IMG/VR virus record: IMGVR_UViG_3300029305_002265
Reading direction: 5' to 3' (one strand)
DNA length: 64,000 nt
Source: a virus
Lineage: Duplodnaviria > Heunggongvirae > Uroviricota > Caudoviricetes
How positions within the stretch are numbered: the stretch's first letter is position 1; each line of letters opens with the position of its first letter. Positions 7,338 to 11,018 of the stretch are shown piece by piece. The position numbers and the translations under genes are program-made. The notes below the pieces were generated by a model that saw nothing but the letters and a program-made list of their open reading frames with translations, ran no database searches and had not been told where the DNA came from.

Positions 7338-7385
7338 AAATTTAGGGGATACAGATTATTTTCTGTATCCCTATTTTTTTACGTC
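7330..7385. terminator. Bidirectional rho-independent terminator (stem GGGATACAG/CTGTATCCC flanked by A-run and T-run)
   Basis: Perfect 9-bp stem with an 8-nt loop; T7 run on the plus strand and a T-rich tract on the minus strand; lies between the holin (+) and the RHH gene (-). Confidence 0.6.
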
Positions 7386-7526
7386 TTTATTATCAATATA
7401 TTCTTGTAATATCACCGTAATTAAATTGTTTGTACTTCTTCTTTCTTTAGACGCAAGTATGTCTAGCCTAATTTTTAATGTGTCAGGAATACGTAGCGTA
7501 AAAGCACATATATCTTCTTTTGCCAT
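7371..7526 (-). CDS. Small ribbon-helix-helix (CopG/Arc/MetJ-like) DNA-binding protein, 51 aa; not in the ORF track (<60 aa)
   Basis: Hand translation of the minus strand gives MAKEDICAFTLRIPDTLKIRLDILASKERRSTNNLITVILQEYIDNKDVKK*; the beta-strand-helix-helix pattern is typical of RHH repressors/centromere-binding proteins; it is divergent from tubR-like/tubZ-like. Confidence 0.5.
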   Translation of the reverse strand: MAKEDICAFTLRIPDTLKIRLDILASKERRSTNNLITVILQEYIDNKDVKK

Positions 7527-7687
7527 TTATATCACCACCCTACTCTATTATAAAATAATAATAATATGGTGTCAAATTGGTATTATTTTTTAAAAGGTAT
7601 TGCATCATTTTAACCAATGTGGTATCATAAAGACACCAAGCAATGGTAAACATTGCATAACAATGAAAAACAATGGGAGGAAATGAT
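7527..7687. promoter_or_regulatory. AT-rich intergenic region with imperfect iterons (TGGTAT / CAATG motifs spaced about 25 bp); candidate centromere/operator
   Basis: ggtatt, ggtatt, ggtatc and ggtaaac recur at about 25-29 bp spacing, and caatg recurs four times; flanked by divergent RHH and TubR-like genes. Confidence 0.3.
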
Positions 7688-7933
7688 ATGAATAGACTAG
7701 CTTTACTTATTTTGGCAACACTTCAACAGTCTAAAGCAACAGTAGTCGTATCGGCGATGAGTGTATATGAAATTCAAAAATATGCGAATTTGCAGCAATC
7801 AATCACCACGTTACATAGGGCTATGAATTTTTTATTAGATGAACAATATATTAAACAGGGATTAAAGGATTCAAAATCAAACACATTTTATTTAACGCCA
7901 ACAGGCGAACAAATTATTAAGGAGATGTTATAA
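7688..7933 (+). CDS. TubR-like small winged-HTH DNA-binding protein (81 aa from the internal ATG; the ORF track begins at 7673)
   Basis: GGGAGG sits 7 nt before the ATG at 7688; predicted helix-turn-helix plus a wing (…QSITTLHRAMNFLLDEQYI…NTFYLTPTG); immediately upstream of and translationally abutting the tubulin-like gene. Confidence 0.45.
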   Translation: MNRLALLILATLQQSKATVVVSAMSVYEIQKYANLQQSITTLHRAMNFLLDEQYIKQGLKDSKSNTFYLTPTGEQIIKEML

Positions 7934-7934
7934 T

Positions 7935-8957
7935 ATGAATGAACAATTTGGAATTATCGGACTTGGGGCTGGAGGCAGTAATATTGCCAATCTATTCGAA
8001 GCTAAAAATTATACCACCATGTATATCAATACGAGTATTGAAGATTTAAACTGTATTAAAGGGGTTCATAAGTTAGCGATTTCTGGGGCGGAAGGGGCTG
8101 CAAAGGATAGAAAAAGAGTTTTACAACTTGCAATGGAATCATTTGGAGATATTGTTCAAAAAATAGAAAGTGTAATCGCGCAAAAGTATGTGGTTGTTAT
8201 CTTTAGTGCTGGGGGCGGTACAGGAAGTGGCTTATCTATTCCCATACTTAAATATTTAACTCAAATAGGAAAAATTTGCATCCCAGTGATGATACTGCCT
8301 GACGGTCACTCTTCGGCTAAGGTAAACGAAAATGCTTATAATGCCTGTGCAGAGCTAATGTCCATTCAAGGATTAGGGGCAACATTCTTACTAGATAACT
8401 CCAGAGGCGACAAATTTGCCATTAATAACCGTTTTGCATGCGAGCTCGACTCTTTTATCAATTTACAAAACTCAAGCGTACATGGCAACATAGACAAGGC
8501 TGAGCGTAAGCAAATGCTTTCTTGTCCAGGCGTTGCTGTTATTGGTAAAGTAAGTAAAGCGAAAAGTGTAGCGTCTGAACTTGTTGATAGTCTTTATAAT
8601 GGAATACATGCCGAAATAACATCTAAAAATGCCTATTATTTAGGCGTAAGTACATCAAATAGATCTTTAGACATAGAAAGTATCACCTCTACTTTCTCAA
8701 GCGTTTACGATGTTTTTACAGGCACATCGGAGGCAACTTCAATAATCATAGCAACTGGCTTACAGTTTCCACAAAAGAAAATTATAGAATTTAGGAATAA
8801 TTTTGAAAAAGTTGTTAAGACTATGAATGACACCAATGTTATGCAGACTTTCGAGCCGTTGGAACCACTTAAGGGATTGTCATTCACACCGACTGCTATT
8901 CAACCTCAAGCACCAACGAGCCCGAGAGATATTCTCTTGGGGCTATTGAACAATTAG
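7935..8957 (+). CDS. tubZ-like: Tubulin/FtsZ-superfamily GTPase, TubZ/PhuZ-like (340 aa)
   Basis: Glycine-rich T1 loop GIIGLGAGGSNIAN, an FtsZ-like NTSIEDL T2 motif, and the canonical tubulin signature GGGTGSG in SAGGGTGSGLS; size matches phage/plasmid TubZ/PhuZ proteins. Confidence 0.7.
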   Translation: MNEQFGIIGLGAGGSNIANLFEAKNYTTMYINTSIEDLNCIKGVHKLAISGAEGAAKDRKRVLQLAMESFGDIVQKIESVIAQKYVVVIFSAGGGTGSGLSIPILKYLTQIGKICIPVMILPDGHSSAKVNENAYNACAELMSIQGLGATFLLDNSRGDKFAINNRFACELDSFINLQNSSVHGNIDKAERKQMLSCPGVAVIGKVSKAKSVASELVDSLYNGIHAEITSKNAYYLGVSTSNRSLDIESITSTFSSVYDVFTGTSEATSIIIATGLQFPQKKIIEFRNNFEKVVKTMNDTNVMQTFEPLEPLKGLSFTPTAIQPQAPTSPRDILLGLLNN

Positions 8958-8986
8958 GGCTACCGAAAGGTAGCCTTATTTTTTTT
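8958..8986 (+). terminator. Rho-independent terminator after the tubZ-like gene (GGCTACC-gaaa-GGTAGCC + T9)
   Basis: 7-bp perfect stem with a GAAA tetraloop, followed by ttatttttttt. Confidence 0.65.
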
Positions 8987-8995
8987 ACGATTATA

Positions 8996-9029
8996 GCCAA
9001 AAGAAAAGCCCTATGCAGATGCATAGGAC
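8996..9029 (-). terminator. Terminator for the minus-strand serine recombinase gene (GCCCTATG..CATAGGGC stem followed by a T-rich tract on the minus strand)
   Basis: Inverted repeat 9008-9029 followed on the minus strand by TTTTCTTTTGG; it is convergent with the plus-strand terminator. Confidence 0.5.
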
Positions 9030-9035
9030 ATTGTA

Positions 9036-11018
9036 TTAATATAGTTTTCTAGATGTGTTGTTAATATCATTTTCAATCCATTTATTAATTTTCATTATAT
9101 CTTCGAAAGTTATAGTTTCAATAATATCATTGTTATAACTCCACCATGTGGTGCTATTAGCAATAGTGTTATTTACGAAAGCATTAATAGCTTCTTTTTT
9201 AGAGCCGACTAAAACTCGATACCCCTTACGTAATCCTATATGCTCTATGATTTTCAATTCTTCAAATTTATGAATTTGATCATAGAATTTTCTCGTACCT
9301 ATTGCAAATCCTTTTTCAACAGAAATATATTCGAATGCTCTACTTCCTATAAATTTATCTTTGTGTTCAAACATATAATCTATAAGGGCTTCGAATAGTC
9401 TGTTTTCTGTTCCTTTTTTATGAATTATTTGTCTAGAGCATGATTTATAAAGATCGCCCTTTAAGACAACATCAAGTCCCTGATCTTCATATACAACGAT
9501 ATGTTTTATAATTGTAGCTACTTGTTTTTTTGTTAATGTTTTAGTAGCAATGATATGGTCGAATATATTTCTTGCAGTTAGTAAATTGTCTTTAATATTT
9601 ATTTCATCAATTGTATTATCCACTAAATCATTTAATTGTGTTTCAAGTGATTTAATTTCATTTAGTTTTTCTCTTTGCATCATATCATATGTATCATGAA
9701 TCAGTTCCGCCATTGATGGATTTGCTATGGATTCTATCATTTTCTTTTCCATTATATATTTCAATGCAGCTTTCGCATCACTCAAGGACTTCTCTACACG
9801 AGTTATTGAACTTGTGTTGCTACCTCTTTTTTTATATTCTTCTCTTATGATGGCATCAAAATTGTCAATTGTTTTATCTAAATTTTCTCTGCAATGATCT
9901 AAAAATAAAATCAATGATTCTGTTATATTCTCTTCTAATATAGAATGACTTTTGCAGAATTTTATACCTTTCTTATTGTAGGTATTACAAATAAATCTTG
10001 TTTTCCCGCTACTGGTAGTTGGTGTTAATTTTTTGCCGCAGTCTGCGCATATTAACATACCTGAATATGGACTATTTCTATCAACTTTCTTTCCACGATA
10101 AGCATTAATAGACCTATCCGCCATTATTTCTTGAACAATATTAAATGTTGTTTTGTCAATTATTGGTTCATGTGCATTTTTGAAGACTAAATGCTCTTCT
10201 TTATCTAATTTAACTTTCTTTCCCCTAATAGATCTGCGCCTAGTTTTGCCCAAAGTAAGCGTGCCTATGTAAAATGTATTTTTTAATATATTTTGTATTG
10301 TATTATCATGCCATATATTACTAACTTTGCCACGATAAGGTTTTCCCATACTTTCGAGTCTTTGTTTGGTTAGCACGCTATATGTTGGGATTCCTTCTTC
10401 TGTCAATGCTAATGCAATCCTTCTTGTTCCCATTCCGTTTATATACATATCAAAAATTCTTCTAACATATATAGCCGCTACTTCATCAATATGATATTGT
10501 CCTTTTACTATAGGATCAATTACATATCCATATGGGACACATGAAATAAACTTGCCTTCTTTTTGCATAGCACGAATAGAGTCTTTAACTTTTCTGCTTA
10601 TTTCTTTTAGATAACGTTCTCCTAGCCATGAGTTTATATTCAGCATGTCGCTAGAATTTTCATCATCGCTATCATAATTGTCTCCAATTGCAATTAATCT
10701 TTTGTCATCTTTTTGAAGATTTTCTACAAATGTTAGCATCTGGCCACTATTTCTTCCAAGTCTGCTTAAGTCTTTTACAATAATAGTATCAACTTTATCT
10801 GCATTTAGATCATCTTTTAATTCATTAAATGCTGGTCTCTTACTGAATGAGAAACCAGATTCTCCATCGTCTATATAAAATTTTTCAATTTTGATATTAT
10901 TTTTTTCTGCATACTCAAGTATTATTCTTCTTTGGTTTGATATAGACGTACTCTCATCATTTCCGTCCTCTCGTGATAACCTTAAATATGCTACTACTAC
11001 TTTTGCTTTTTTGCTCAT
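9036..11018 (-). CDS. Large serine recombinase (660 aa)
   Basis: N-terminal resolvase catalytic domain (VVAYLRLSRED…DLSRLGRN), a large recombinase domain and a C-terminal zinc ribbon (CADCGKKL…CNTY). Confidence 0.85.
   Translation of the reverse strand: MSKKAKVVVAYLRLSREDGNDESTSISNQRRIILEYAEKNNIKIEKFYIDDGESGFSFSKRPAFNELKDDLNADKVDTIIVKDLSRLGRNSGQMLTFVENLQKDDKRLIAIGDNYDSDDENSSDMLNINSWLGERYLKEISRKVKDSIRAMQKEGKFISCVPYGYVIDPIVKGQYHIDEVAAIYVRRIFDMYINGMGTRRIALALTEEGIPTYSVLTKQRLESMGKPYRGKVSNIWHDNTIQNILKNTFYIGTLTLGKTRRRSIRGKKVKLDKEEHLVFKNAHEPIIDKTTFNIVQEIMADRSINAYRGKKVDRNSPYSGMLICADCGKKLTPTTSSGKTRFICNTYNKKGIKFCKSHSILEENITESLILFLDHCRENLDKTIDNFDAIIREEYKKRGSNTSSITRVEKSLSDAKAALKYIMEKKMIESIANPSMAELIHDTYDMMQREKLNEIKSLETQLNDLVDNTIDEINIKDNLLTARNIFDHIIATKTLTKKQVATIIKHIVVYEDQGLDVVLKGDLYKSCSRQIIHKKGTENRLFEALIDYMFEHKDKFIGSRAFEYISVEKGFAIGTRKFYDQIHKFEELKIIEHIGLRKGYRVLVGSKKEAINAFVNNTIANSTTWWSYNNDIIETITFEDIMKINKWIENDINNTSRKLY

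Follow-up and report, generated by a model that had tools for sequence, protein, structure and literature searches.

A compact c-st-like TubZRC locus with a divergent ribbon-helix-helix gene and a SprA-like recombinase in a large uncultivated phage

INTRODUCTION

To our knowledge, phage-borne type III (TubZRC) partition systems have so far been represented essentially by that of the Clostridium botulinum toxin phage c-st, whose TubZRC(Y) set comprises the winged-helix protein TubR (CST190), the tubulin-like GTPase TubZ (CST189), the centromere tubC and the MerR-like regulator TubY (CST188). We analysed a related locus located at positions 7371-8978 of a 64,000-nucleotide stretch of viral DNA (IMG/VR record IMGVR_UViG_3300029305_002265), referred to below as the window and numbered from its first letter. 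In this locus, tubR and tubZ are preceded by a divergent gene for a small ribbon-helix-helix (RHH) protein and followed by a convergent gene for a large serine recombinase. Our preferred reading, which we regard as reasonably probable, is that of a c-st-like TubZRC cassette serving the episomal carriage of a temperate phage, with the RHH protein as regulator. Its new features are that no TubY was detected, that an Arc-like RHH gene lies divergently upstream, that the repeat region is very compact and that a SprA-like integrase gene adjoins it.

Both c-st and its phiCD211-type relatives are plasmid prophages (PMC5786514, PMC8026635), the phiCD211/phiCDIF1296T group consisting of large extrachromosomal 'plasmidial' clostridial siphoviruses (PMC5786514). 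The TubZRC systems of Bacillus plasmids (pBtoxis, pXO1/pBc10987 RepX and pBsph) share with the locus described here the order tubR-tubZ and iterons upstream. They also encode in their neighbourhood, frequently upstream, a third DNA-binding regulator whose orientation varies (PMC7762940). This third component is of the MerR type, containing a coiled coil and a tail that binds membranes, in contrast to the RHH protein of the window. Three other systems are comparable in part. PhuZ and PhiKZ TubZ, from nucleus-forming jumbo phages, are likewise phage-encoded GTPases of the tubulin/FtsZ fold. The immI region of P22 carries Arc and Mnt, RHH repressors of the same small class, at closely spaced divergent promoters. 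The Bacillus phage SPβ, many homologues of which have been annotated in c-st, encodes the integrase SprA; it has no TubZRC and is integrated at spsM.

RESULTS AND DISCUSSION

TubZ and TubR are homologous to the partition proteins of c-st

The gene at 7935-8957 (+) encodes a protein of 340 amino acids, which is TubZ by sequence and by fold. The original prediction had taken it for a tubulin/FtsZ homologue from its motifs: GLGAGGSNIAN at residues 9-19, NTSIEDL at 32-38 and the G-box GGGTGSG at 93-99. This was confirmed by matches to the Pfam families Tubulin (E 2.8e-12) and TubZ_C_3 (E 3.9e-8), both above the curated cut-offs, and by a profile search of the PDB in which two crystal structures of c-st TubZ (4xcq/3v3t) came top with E 3.7e-29. 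The alignment covers residues 9-290. B. cereus TubZ (4ei7, E 1.2e-5) and PhiKZ TubZ (3zbp, E 0.06) were much remoter, and among PHROG families the protein also matched 'tubulin PhuZ' (E 1.7e-12). An AlphaFold2 model was calculated from an alignment of 22 homologues (predicted local distance difference test, pLDDT, 79; predicted template modelling score 0.80). Foldseek returned 3v3t as its top match (template modelling scores 0.79/0.89, root-mean-square deviation 2.3 Å), ahead of CetZ, Bacillus TubZ and FtsZ.

A T7-like motif, N185-I-D187-K-A-E190, aligns with the segment VVDEDE of c-st TubZ, and its residues N185, D187 and E190 are invariant in the 22 homologues. The protein has the acidic T7-loop residues (NxDxxD/E) of polymer-dependent GTP hydrolysis, and is predicted to be catalytically active. 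In the model, residues 300-327 are disordered (pLDDT <50) and followed by a helix at 330-339. P330, R331, D332, L334 and L337 are as invariant in the 22 homologues as the G-box, and across the family the final ten residues do not vary. A flexible tail engaging the TubR-tubC complex is the expected layout of a TubZ (PMC5322520); the tail seen here, which c-st TubZ also has, is predicted to interact in the same way. The gene ends in a terminator hairpin (8955-8978, +); in the variant left arm described below, compensatory changes preserve its stem.

The stop codon of tubR (7688-7933, +) lies 1 nt ahead of the tubZ ATG. It is preceded by a ribosome-binding site, GGGAGG, at 7675-7680; the mechanical start of the open reading frame (ORF) is 7673. 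Its 81-aa product had been described as a TubR-like winged-helix protein, which our searches bear out: it aligns end to end with c-st TubR (CST190) at 29% identity (E 3e-12), its sole significant PDB match is TubR 6tey (E 1.4e-7), and it falls in PHROG 17403. By homology this protein is TubR, a winged-helix and putative centromere-binding protein from which DNA binding may be expected. The predicted ORF positions of all four genes (RHH, TubR-like, TubZ and recombinase) stood unchanged.

Taken by homology, the cassette belongs to the c-st branch of the type III partition systems. As in c-st, an 81-aa winged-helix TubR is encoded directly upstream of TubZ; the window's TubZ and TubR are however only ~30% identical to their c-st counterparts. 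Membership of the PhuZ-type spindle systems is not indicated by the sequence, since these lack TubR and a centromere, whereas the window has TubR and repeats and no chimallin-type context.

A divergent RHH gene is present and no TubY was found

The gene at 7371-7526 (-) is monocistronic and divergent from tubRZ. Its 51-aa product is, from its profile matches, a member of the ribbon-helix-helix superfamily, Arc/Mnt class. The match to Pfam RHH_5 is marginal (E 1.2e-5, 25.4 bits for a cut-off of 26). Arc-like repressor families of PHROG are matched with E 1e-6 to 4e-10, the best one being labelled 'partition protein' (E 4.4e-10). With a profile of 14 orthologues, the best PDB matches were P22 pArc (3e-3) and Mnt (0.017), which have the R-S-V-N motif in common with it. 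The likeness to P22 immI is thus weak in sequence (E 3e-3 to 2e-2). It is also limited in context: immI controls an antirepressor and not a partition operon, and its operator is a single 21-bp palindrome, in contrast to the apparent phased direct repeats found here.

The original prediction regarded an RHH protein as a non-canonical companion of TubR/TubZ that might form a variant centromere-binding set. The first part held well, as the RHH gene is found in every relative with TubZ at least 44% identical to that of the window and is absent from c-st and from remoter TubRZ phages. The centromere-binding role survives only as a rival reading, the matches to Arc and Mnt favouring a repressor. In the literature we found nothing that ties TubZRC to an RHH protein or to a large serine recombinase.

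In c-st the third component is TubY. Using c-st TubY as query, phmmer found no homologue in the 64-kb window (of a genome of ~172 kb) or in the flanks of ~95 related loci, c-st itself being the only positive locus, and none of the called genes of the window matched the MerR families of Pfam.

The control region carries two promoters and two sets of repeats

The RHH and tubR genes are separated by 161 bp (7527-7687). The RHH promoter (7547-7575, -), TTGACA-N17-TATAAT, agrees with the consensus at 12 of 12 positions and has the same architecture in relatives. A candidate tubRZ promoter (7600-7628, +) is composed of TTGCAT (7600-7605), 17 nt and TATCAT (7623-7628), with an extended -10 TG at 7620-7621. 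It scores below the threshold of the promoter scan and was recognised from the sequence together with the alignment of relatives, which have TTGACA-N17-TATCAT with an extended -10 at this position. The relatives' spacer displays back-to-back promoters of the form TGTCAA...TTGACA, the RHH promoter again being TTGACA-N17-TATAAT.

This region had been described as iteron-like, with GGTAT and CAATG repeats spaced by about 25 bp. The enrichment of both motifs was confirmed, not the uniform spacing. The first set, GGTRT (7567-7625, +), overlaps both promoters and includes GGTAT at 7579, 7596 and 7621 and GGTGT at 7568, for an expectation of ~0.12-0.2 copies of GGTAT; an inverted pair TGGTGTC/GACACCA is also present at 7567-7573 and 7632-7638. 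The second set, CAATG (7615-7675, +), lies mostly in the tubR leader and is a candidate tubC centromere. It has CAATG at 7615, 7641, 7661 and 7671 and an inverted CATTG at 7651 (~0.23 copies expected), with the palindrome GCAATG-N5-CATTGC at 7640-7656 and further ACAATG repeats in the leader. Spacings are 11, 17 and 25 bp for GGTRT and 26, 20 and 10 bp for CAATG (10-bp steps when the inverted copy is counted), that is, a mixture of 10-11, 17 and 25-26 bp. The combined repeat count is attained by ~0.1% of the 161-bp windows in the 64 kb, all of them overlapping 7527-7687, a figure that is not a formal P value because the motifs were picked after viewing the sequence.

Repeats upstream of tubR that overlap its promoter are a feature shared with c-st, where the control region is longer (~350-500 bp versus 161 bp). 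The motifs differ: TTGAC and A/TGAA in c-st (PMC6009700), GGTRT and CAATG in the window. In relatives of the window, 5-6 direct copies of GTG[AC]T (0.2 expected) are spaced by 11, 13, 11 and 22 bp across both promoters, and the tubR leader contains a second repeat/palindrome set, TGCAAT/TGCAC. Natural reassortants (L001/L030, L035/L036 and window/L032, where L numbers designate related loci) made it possible to compare these sets with the protein subtypes: the promoter repeats track the RHH subtype and the leader repeats track the TubR subtype. This suggests that the promoter array is the putative binding site of the RHH protein and the leader array that of TubR.

The locus is conserved in order and exchanged in modules

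The protein collection contained 461 TubZ relatives, many of them on contigs of 140-170 kb. The order RHH(-)/TubR(+)/TubZ(+)/large serine recombinase was observed in every locus with TubZ at least 44% identical (~20 distinct contigs, 140-175 kb); L017, L026 and L032 differ in having the recombinase on the + strand. A remoter clade (TubZ 30-39%, contigs of 20-55 kb) has TubR-TubZ, usually followed by a replisome-organiser-like gene, and no RHH gene. Loci L038-L098 (IMG/VR, 20-55 kb, gut) carry tubR-tubZ directly upstream of such a replisome-organiser-like gene; judged by their gene content, these small viral contigs look like TubZRC-bearing phage-plasmids, apparently little described.

Among the relatives, identity to the window is 44-84% for TubZ, 35-46% for TubR and 31-46% for the RHH protein, and in one of them a TubZ of 84% identity accompanies a TubR of 35%. 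For the recombinase the figure is 21-43%, with L037 as the exception (96%, next to a TubZ of 64%). At the DNA level, comparison with L001 gave ~50% identity over RHH-spacer-tubR, 75-97% from the tubR/tubZ boundary and a drop after tubZ. Because identities shift independently in L001 and L037, three exchangeable modules can be distinguished: RHH-spacer-TubR, TubZ, and the recombinase with the small gene p57 upstream of it. Rapidly diverging TubR and RHH proteins beside a slower TubZ would fit a diversifying DNA-specificity set combined with an interchangeable motor.

Right of ~8998, a co-occurring strain (L099/L104) matches the window at 100% identity; to the left, identity falls to 55-70%. The variant block is ~9.3 kb long (window about -340 to 8997) and comprises tail-fibre (DUF859), holin, RHH, tubR and tubZ genes; host-range genes and partition cassette have been exchanged together in this strain. 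Swapping of the partition cassette as the sole cause of strain variation was considered and proved only partly right, as the same block holds the tail-fibre and holin genes. Many assemblies break near 8998 because of this strain variation.

The neighbouring recombinase is of the phage-integrase type

The gene at 9036-11018 (-) encodes a large serine recombinase of 660 amino acids, in which the Pfam domains Resolvase (E 3.6e-28), Recombinase (E 3.9e-24) and Zn_ribbon_recom (E 1.5e-11) follow one another. It matches PHROG 95, 'integrase', with E 1.6e-101, and its best PDB match is SPβ SprA/YokA (9dxh; E 9.4e-22, residues 8-509, 29% identity). The original prediction had seen here a plasmid-style resolvase accompanying a partition locus. 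This does not agree with the integrase architecture, the PHROG match and SprA as best solved relative, and a small plasmid/transposon resolvase of the Tn3/gamma-delta kind (~180-200 aa plus a helix-turn-helix, acting at res sites) is ruled out by the length of 660 aa and by the Recombinase and zinc-ribbon domains. From its sequence the protein is thus a large serine recombinase of the phage-integrase type, and presumably acts as an integrase. In c-st, no large serine integrase is annotated. The convergent terminators reported between tubZ and this gene were recovered as hairpins at 8955-8978 (+) and 9029-9008 (-); the stem of the recombinase hairpin (9008-9029, -) is conserved in L037.

Directly upstream of the recombinase gene and on the same strand, p57 (11085-11258, -) encodes a 57-aa protein that co-varies with the recombinase, being 93% identical where the latter is 96% identical and 35-54% identical otherwise. 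It has no similarity or alignment to SprB and no family match, and no SprB homologue was found, in contrast to SPβ. Its position and covariation make it a candidate accessory or directionality factor.

A sharp mosaic junction is located at 8976-8997, 39-60 nt beyond the recombinase stop codon. The att site of SPβ is found 25 nt beyond the sprA stop codon, an analogy that is suggestive of the junction as one possible location of attP. Contig ends at 8998 were also considered as a sign of attP or integration, and rejected: the last strain difference, a single-nucleotide polymorphism at 8997, together with k-mer overlap accounts for them. No attB or host junction was found in any of the contigs. 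The opposite orientation of the gene in three relatives raised the possibility of an invertible segment, which was dropped as no inverted repeats flank it in the window; a search of the window for long repeats around the recombinase, direct or inverted, was negative.

The phage is related to c-st and SPβ and is seen unintegrated

In INPHARED, Megablast found no near-identical deposited phage for either the module or an 18-kb replication block. Positions 8998-64000 of the window are 100% identical, in all stretches compared, to contig ERZ27248370:k141_2760514 (172,425 bp), which starts at window position 8998. Since the same genes are present on several contigs of 171,821-173,356 bp (172,425 bp in a second sample, 171,821 bp and 173,356 bp), we infer a complete genome of ~172 kb. 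Like c-st, it would be a large phage (~170-185 kb) with related DnaE, NrdD, ligase, helicase and Xer-like recombinase. DnaE shares 54.5% identity with its c-st counterpart and ~50% with those of the phiCD211/phiCDIF1296T group, and 12 ORFs of the window have c-st homologues. The phage encodes its own replisome (DnaE, DnaB-like helicase, primase and ligase) in addition to NrdD.

A homologue of the MrpR/YopR master repressor of SPβ is encoded at 58792-59739 (-), with PDB matches 8bj6/8a0a at E 5e-6 over 280 residues and weak matches to the MrpR Pfam domains. The neighbouring gene (59826-60812, -) encodes an Xer-like tyrosine recombinase (Pfam Phage_integrase, E 3.3e-34; homologue of c-st CST104, E 3e-17). 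The MrpR/YopR homologue, itself of the tyrosine-recombinase fold, and the Xer-like gene stand side by side at 58792-60812 (-). By its homology the Xer-like protein is a better candidate for multimer resolution than the serine recombinase. From DnaE, the c-st homologues, the MrpR-like repressor and the Xer-like gene, the phage is of the temperate type and belongs to the SPβ/c-st lineage; it is probably a ~172-kb temperate phage of gut or rumen clostridial hosts. A Firmicutes host is suggested by Shine-Dalgarno sites, sigma-70-type promoters, the clostridial relatives and SleB-type hydrolases. Two phage-length contigs of the family, L016 and L017 (GTDB; 165,582 and 147,435 bp), are binned in Paludibacteraceae and Prevotella metagenome-assembled genomes (MAGs), probably by mis-binning in view of these Firmicutes-type expression signals.

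In the window, phage genes lie on both sides of the recombinase, which is the unintegrated arrangement. Of 13 contigs with an identical recombinase and 24 with the neighbouring hydrolase, 0 join host DNA, and most are genome-length. The suggestion that the element is maintained as an episomal plasmid-prophage is plausible in view of the DnaE relationship to c-st and of the unintegrated state of all contigs, which would fit an episome and virion or replicating DNA alike. One contig, L011 (JGI 3300031555 Ga0318466_10000886), has an exact tubZ and measures 204,383 bp, ~32 kb beyond ~172 kb; it starts inside the recombinase gene, and the exact neighbouring hydrolase protein is absent from it. This contig may be a larger variant or a misassembly, or may include host DNA.

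Proposed function and alternatives

According to our preferred reading, TubR would bind the short repeats of the 161-bp region, most likely the CAATG/CATTGC elements in its own leader, which would act as a compact tubC. TubZ would polymerise with GTP, and its invariant C-terminal tail would carry TubR-bound phage DNA to both daughter cells, so that the phage would persist as a low-copy episome in the manner of c-st. The Arc/Mnt-class RHH protein may be a lineage-specific third component occupying the regulatory place of the MerR-like TubY. It would most likely bind the helically phased repeats over the back-to-back promoters and repress both its own promoter and that of tubRZ. The 660-aa recombinase and its small partner protein would form a SprA-like integrase cassette, as opposed to a partition-locus resolvase, offering an integration option or being used in hosts with a matching attB. 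A more elaborate version, which we think unlikely, is a dual-mode lysogeny cassette made of integrase and TubZRC. There the RHH protein, having replaced TubY, would set the choice between episome and integration, and the RHH-operator-TubR module would be swapped to escape incompatibility.

The partition reading was weighed against a role of TubR-TubZ in lytic growth, namely the positioning or movement of replicating phage DNA as by PhuZ or AlpC. Such a role is conceivable, since phage tubulin- and actin-like proteins serve replication besides segregation (PMC8026635, PMC4446434), and it would suit a large phage with its own replisome, a match to PHROG 'tubulin PhuZ' and contigs that are all unintegrated and genome-length. 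PhuZ systems, however, work without the TubR and centromere that are at issue here: TubR is conserved and adjacent, with repeats upstream. By far the nearest relatives are TubZ and TubR of c-st, a characterised partition system, the PhiKZ protein reaching only E 0.06. Host-type consensus promoters, the location of the cassette beside an integrase and between the lysis and early regions, and the fact that TubR and its sites have diverged faster than TubZ, as expected of incompatibility-driven partition evolution, also speak against it. We consequently hold the lytic role to be unlikely, and a PhuZ-type spindle during replication, the other option of the original prediction, is weaker than partition given TubR and the repeated sites. 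That the cassette is a decaying or non-functional remnant is very improbable. Nothing specific argues for it apart from one relative (L022) with a split recombinase ORF, and against it are four ORFs intact in ~20 divergent lineages, invariant catalytic and tail residues in TubZ and terminator stems kept by compensatory changes.

Two further alternatives concern the companions of tubRZ, and we find both rather doubtful. The serine recombinase could be a multimer-resolution or cyclisation enzyme of the episome, comparable to Cre/lox, with a site between tubZ and its own gene. It adjoins tubZ in all relatives despite changes of type (21-43% identity) and orientation, a sharp recombination junction is found 39-60 nt from its stop codon, and an integrated copy was seen in 0 contigs. 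Nevertheless, its size and domain architecture are those of a phage integrase, with an integrase family as PHROG match and SprA as nearest solved protein, and the contig ends at 8998 are fully explained by the strain polymorphism at 8997. The substrates of serine integrases are attP and attB (or attL and attR in the presence of a directionality factor), not two identical sites. In proven plasmid prophages the recombinases are tyrosine enzymes of the Xer type or small (~190-aa) serine enzymes (PMC8026635), and the window has an Xer-like gene homologous to c-st CST104 at 59826-60812. The RHH protein, for its part, could be a second or the true centromere binder, like ParR, ParG or omega, in a hybrid segrosome with TubR. 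In partition systems of types Ib and II, it is RHH proteins that bind the centromere (PMC8026635). The best PHROG family is labelled 'partition protein', the direct and helically phased sites of relatives resemble parC-type iterons, and RHH, spacer and TubR are exchanged as a unit with respect to TubZ. This is countered by the profile matches to Arc and Mnt, which repress divergent promoters, by the repeats falling exactly on the -35 and -10 boxes of the two promoters and by the independent reassortment of RHH and TubR subtypes. Moreover, the TubZ systems studied need only TubR-tubC as cargo adaptor (PMC7762940).

Several points nevertheless weigh against the reading as an episomal partition cassette. 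TubY is needed for stable maintenance in the Bacillus systems (PMC7762940), and none was found in the 64 of ~172 kb covered here. The control region has 161 bp including two promoters, compared with 130-350 bp for known tubC; two predicted DNA-binding proteins would compete for its short repeat array, and the repeats of the window are less regular than those of relatives. The assignment of arrays to proteins stays inferential because each array adjoins 'its' gene. Genome-length, circular-looking contigs are equally expected of virions or lytic replication, and a strictly episomal phage would have no evident use for the integrase beside its partition system. Finally, while a scan of genome contigs with a single protein found no relative, a profile search gave three MAG contigs, two of which are binned as Bacteroidales, at odds with a Firmicutes host; mis-binning is the probable cause in view of the Shine-Dalgarno sites and TTGACA/TATAAT promoters.

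The system proves to be widespread in uncultivated gut and rumen phages: its genes are found on at least 98 viral contigs, and the layout is conserved in a family of ~20 large phages. Motor and DNA-recognition parts evolve as separable modules, and TubY can apparently be missing, its place being taken by an RHH regulator. The genome joins features of two model phages, SPβ (integration by SprA, MrpR) and c-st (plasmid prophage, TubZRC), and offers a natural system in which to study the choice of a temperate phage between an integrated and an episomal state. With its length of only 1.6 kb, the cassette (7371-8978) is also a possible stabiliser of clostridial plasmids.

Other features of the window

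Upstream of the RHH gene, a holin gene (7026-7337, +) was identified by Pfam and PHROG holin matches, and a bidirectional terminator-like hairpin (7345-7372, both strands) lies between the two. On the other side of the recombinase module, two paralogous SleB-type hydrolase-like genes (11391-11951 and 12009-12620, -) share ~65% DNA identity; the first matches Pfam Hydrolase_2, and both products have an N-terminal transmembrane segment and an E/K/V-rich repeat.

A gene for a PARP-domain protein (29795-31012, -) and an NAD gene cluster (35208-39141, -) are also present, the latter comprising NAD synthase, NAMPT/NAPRTase, phosphoribosyl pyrophosphate (PRPP)-synthetase-like and isochorismatase/nicotinamidase-like genes. 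By analogy, this cluster resembles phage NAD+ reconstitution that counters NAD-depleting defence. Six tRNA genes (Pro, Gln, Ser, Lys and Leu x2) are grouped at 24756-26383 (-), inside the early/replication arm. The nrdD gene, intact in the window (14811-16751), is split in L008/L009 (14830-17885) by a GIY-YIG endonuclease gene (homing endonuclease/intron).

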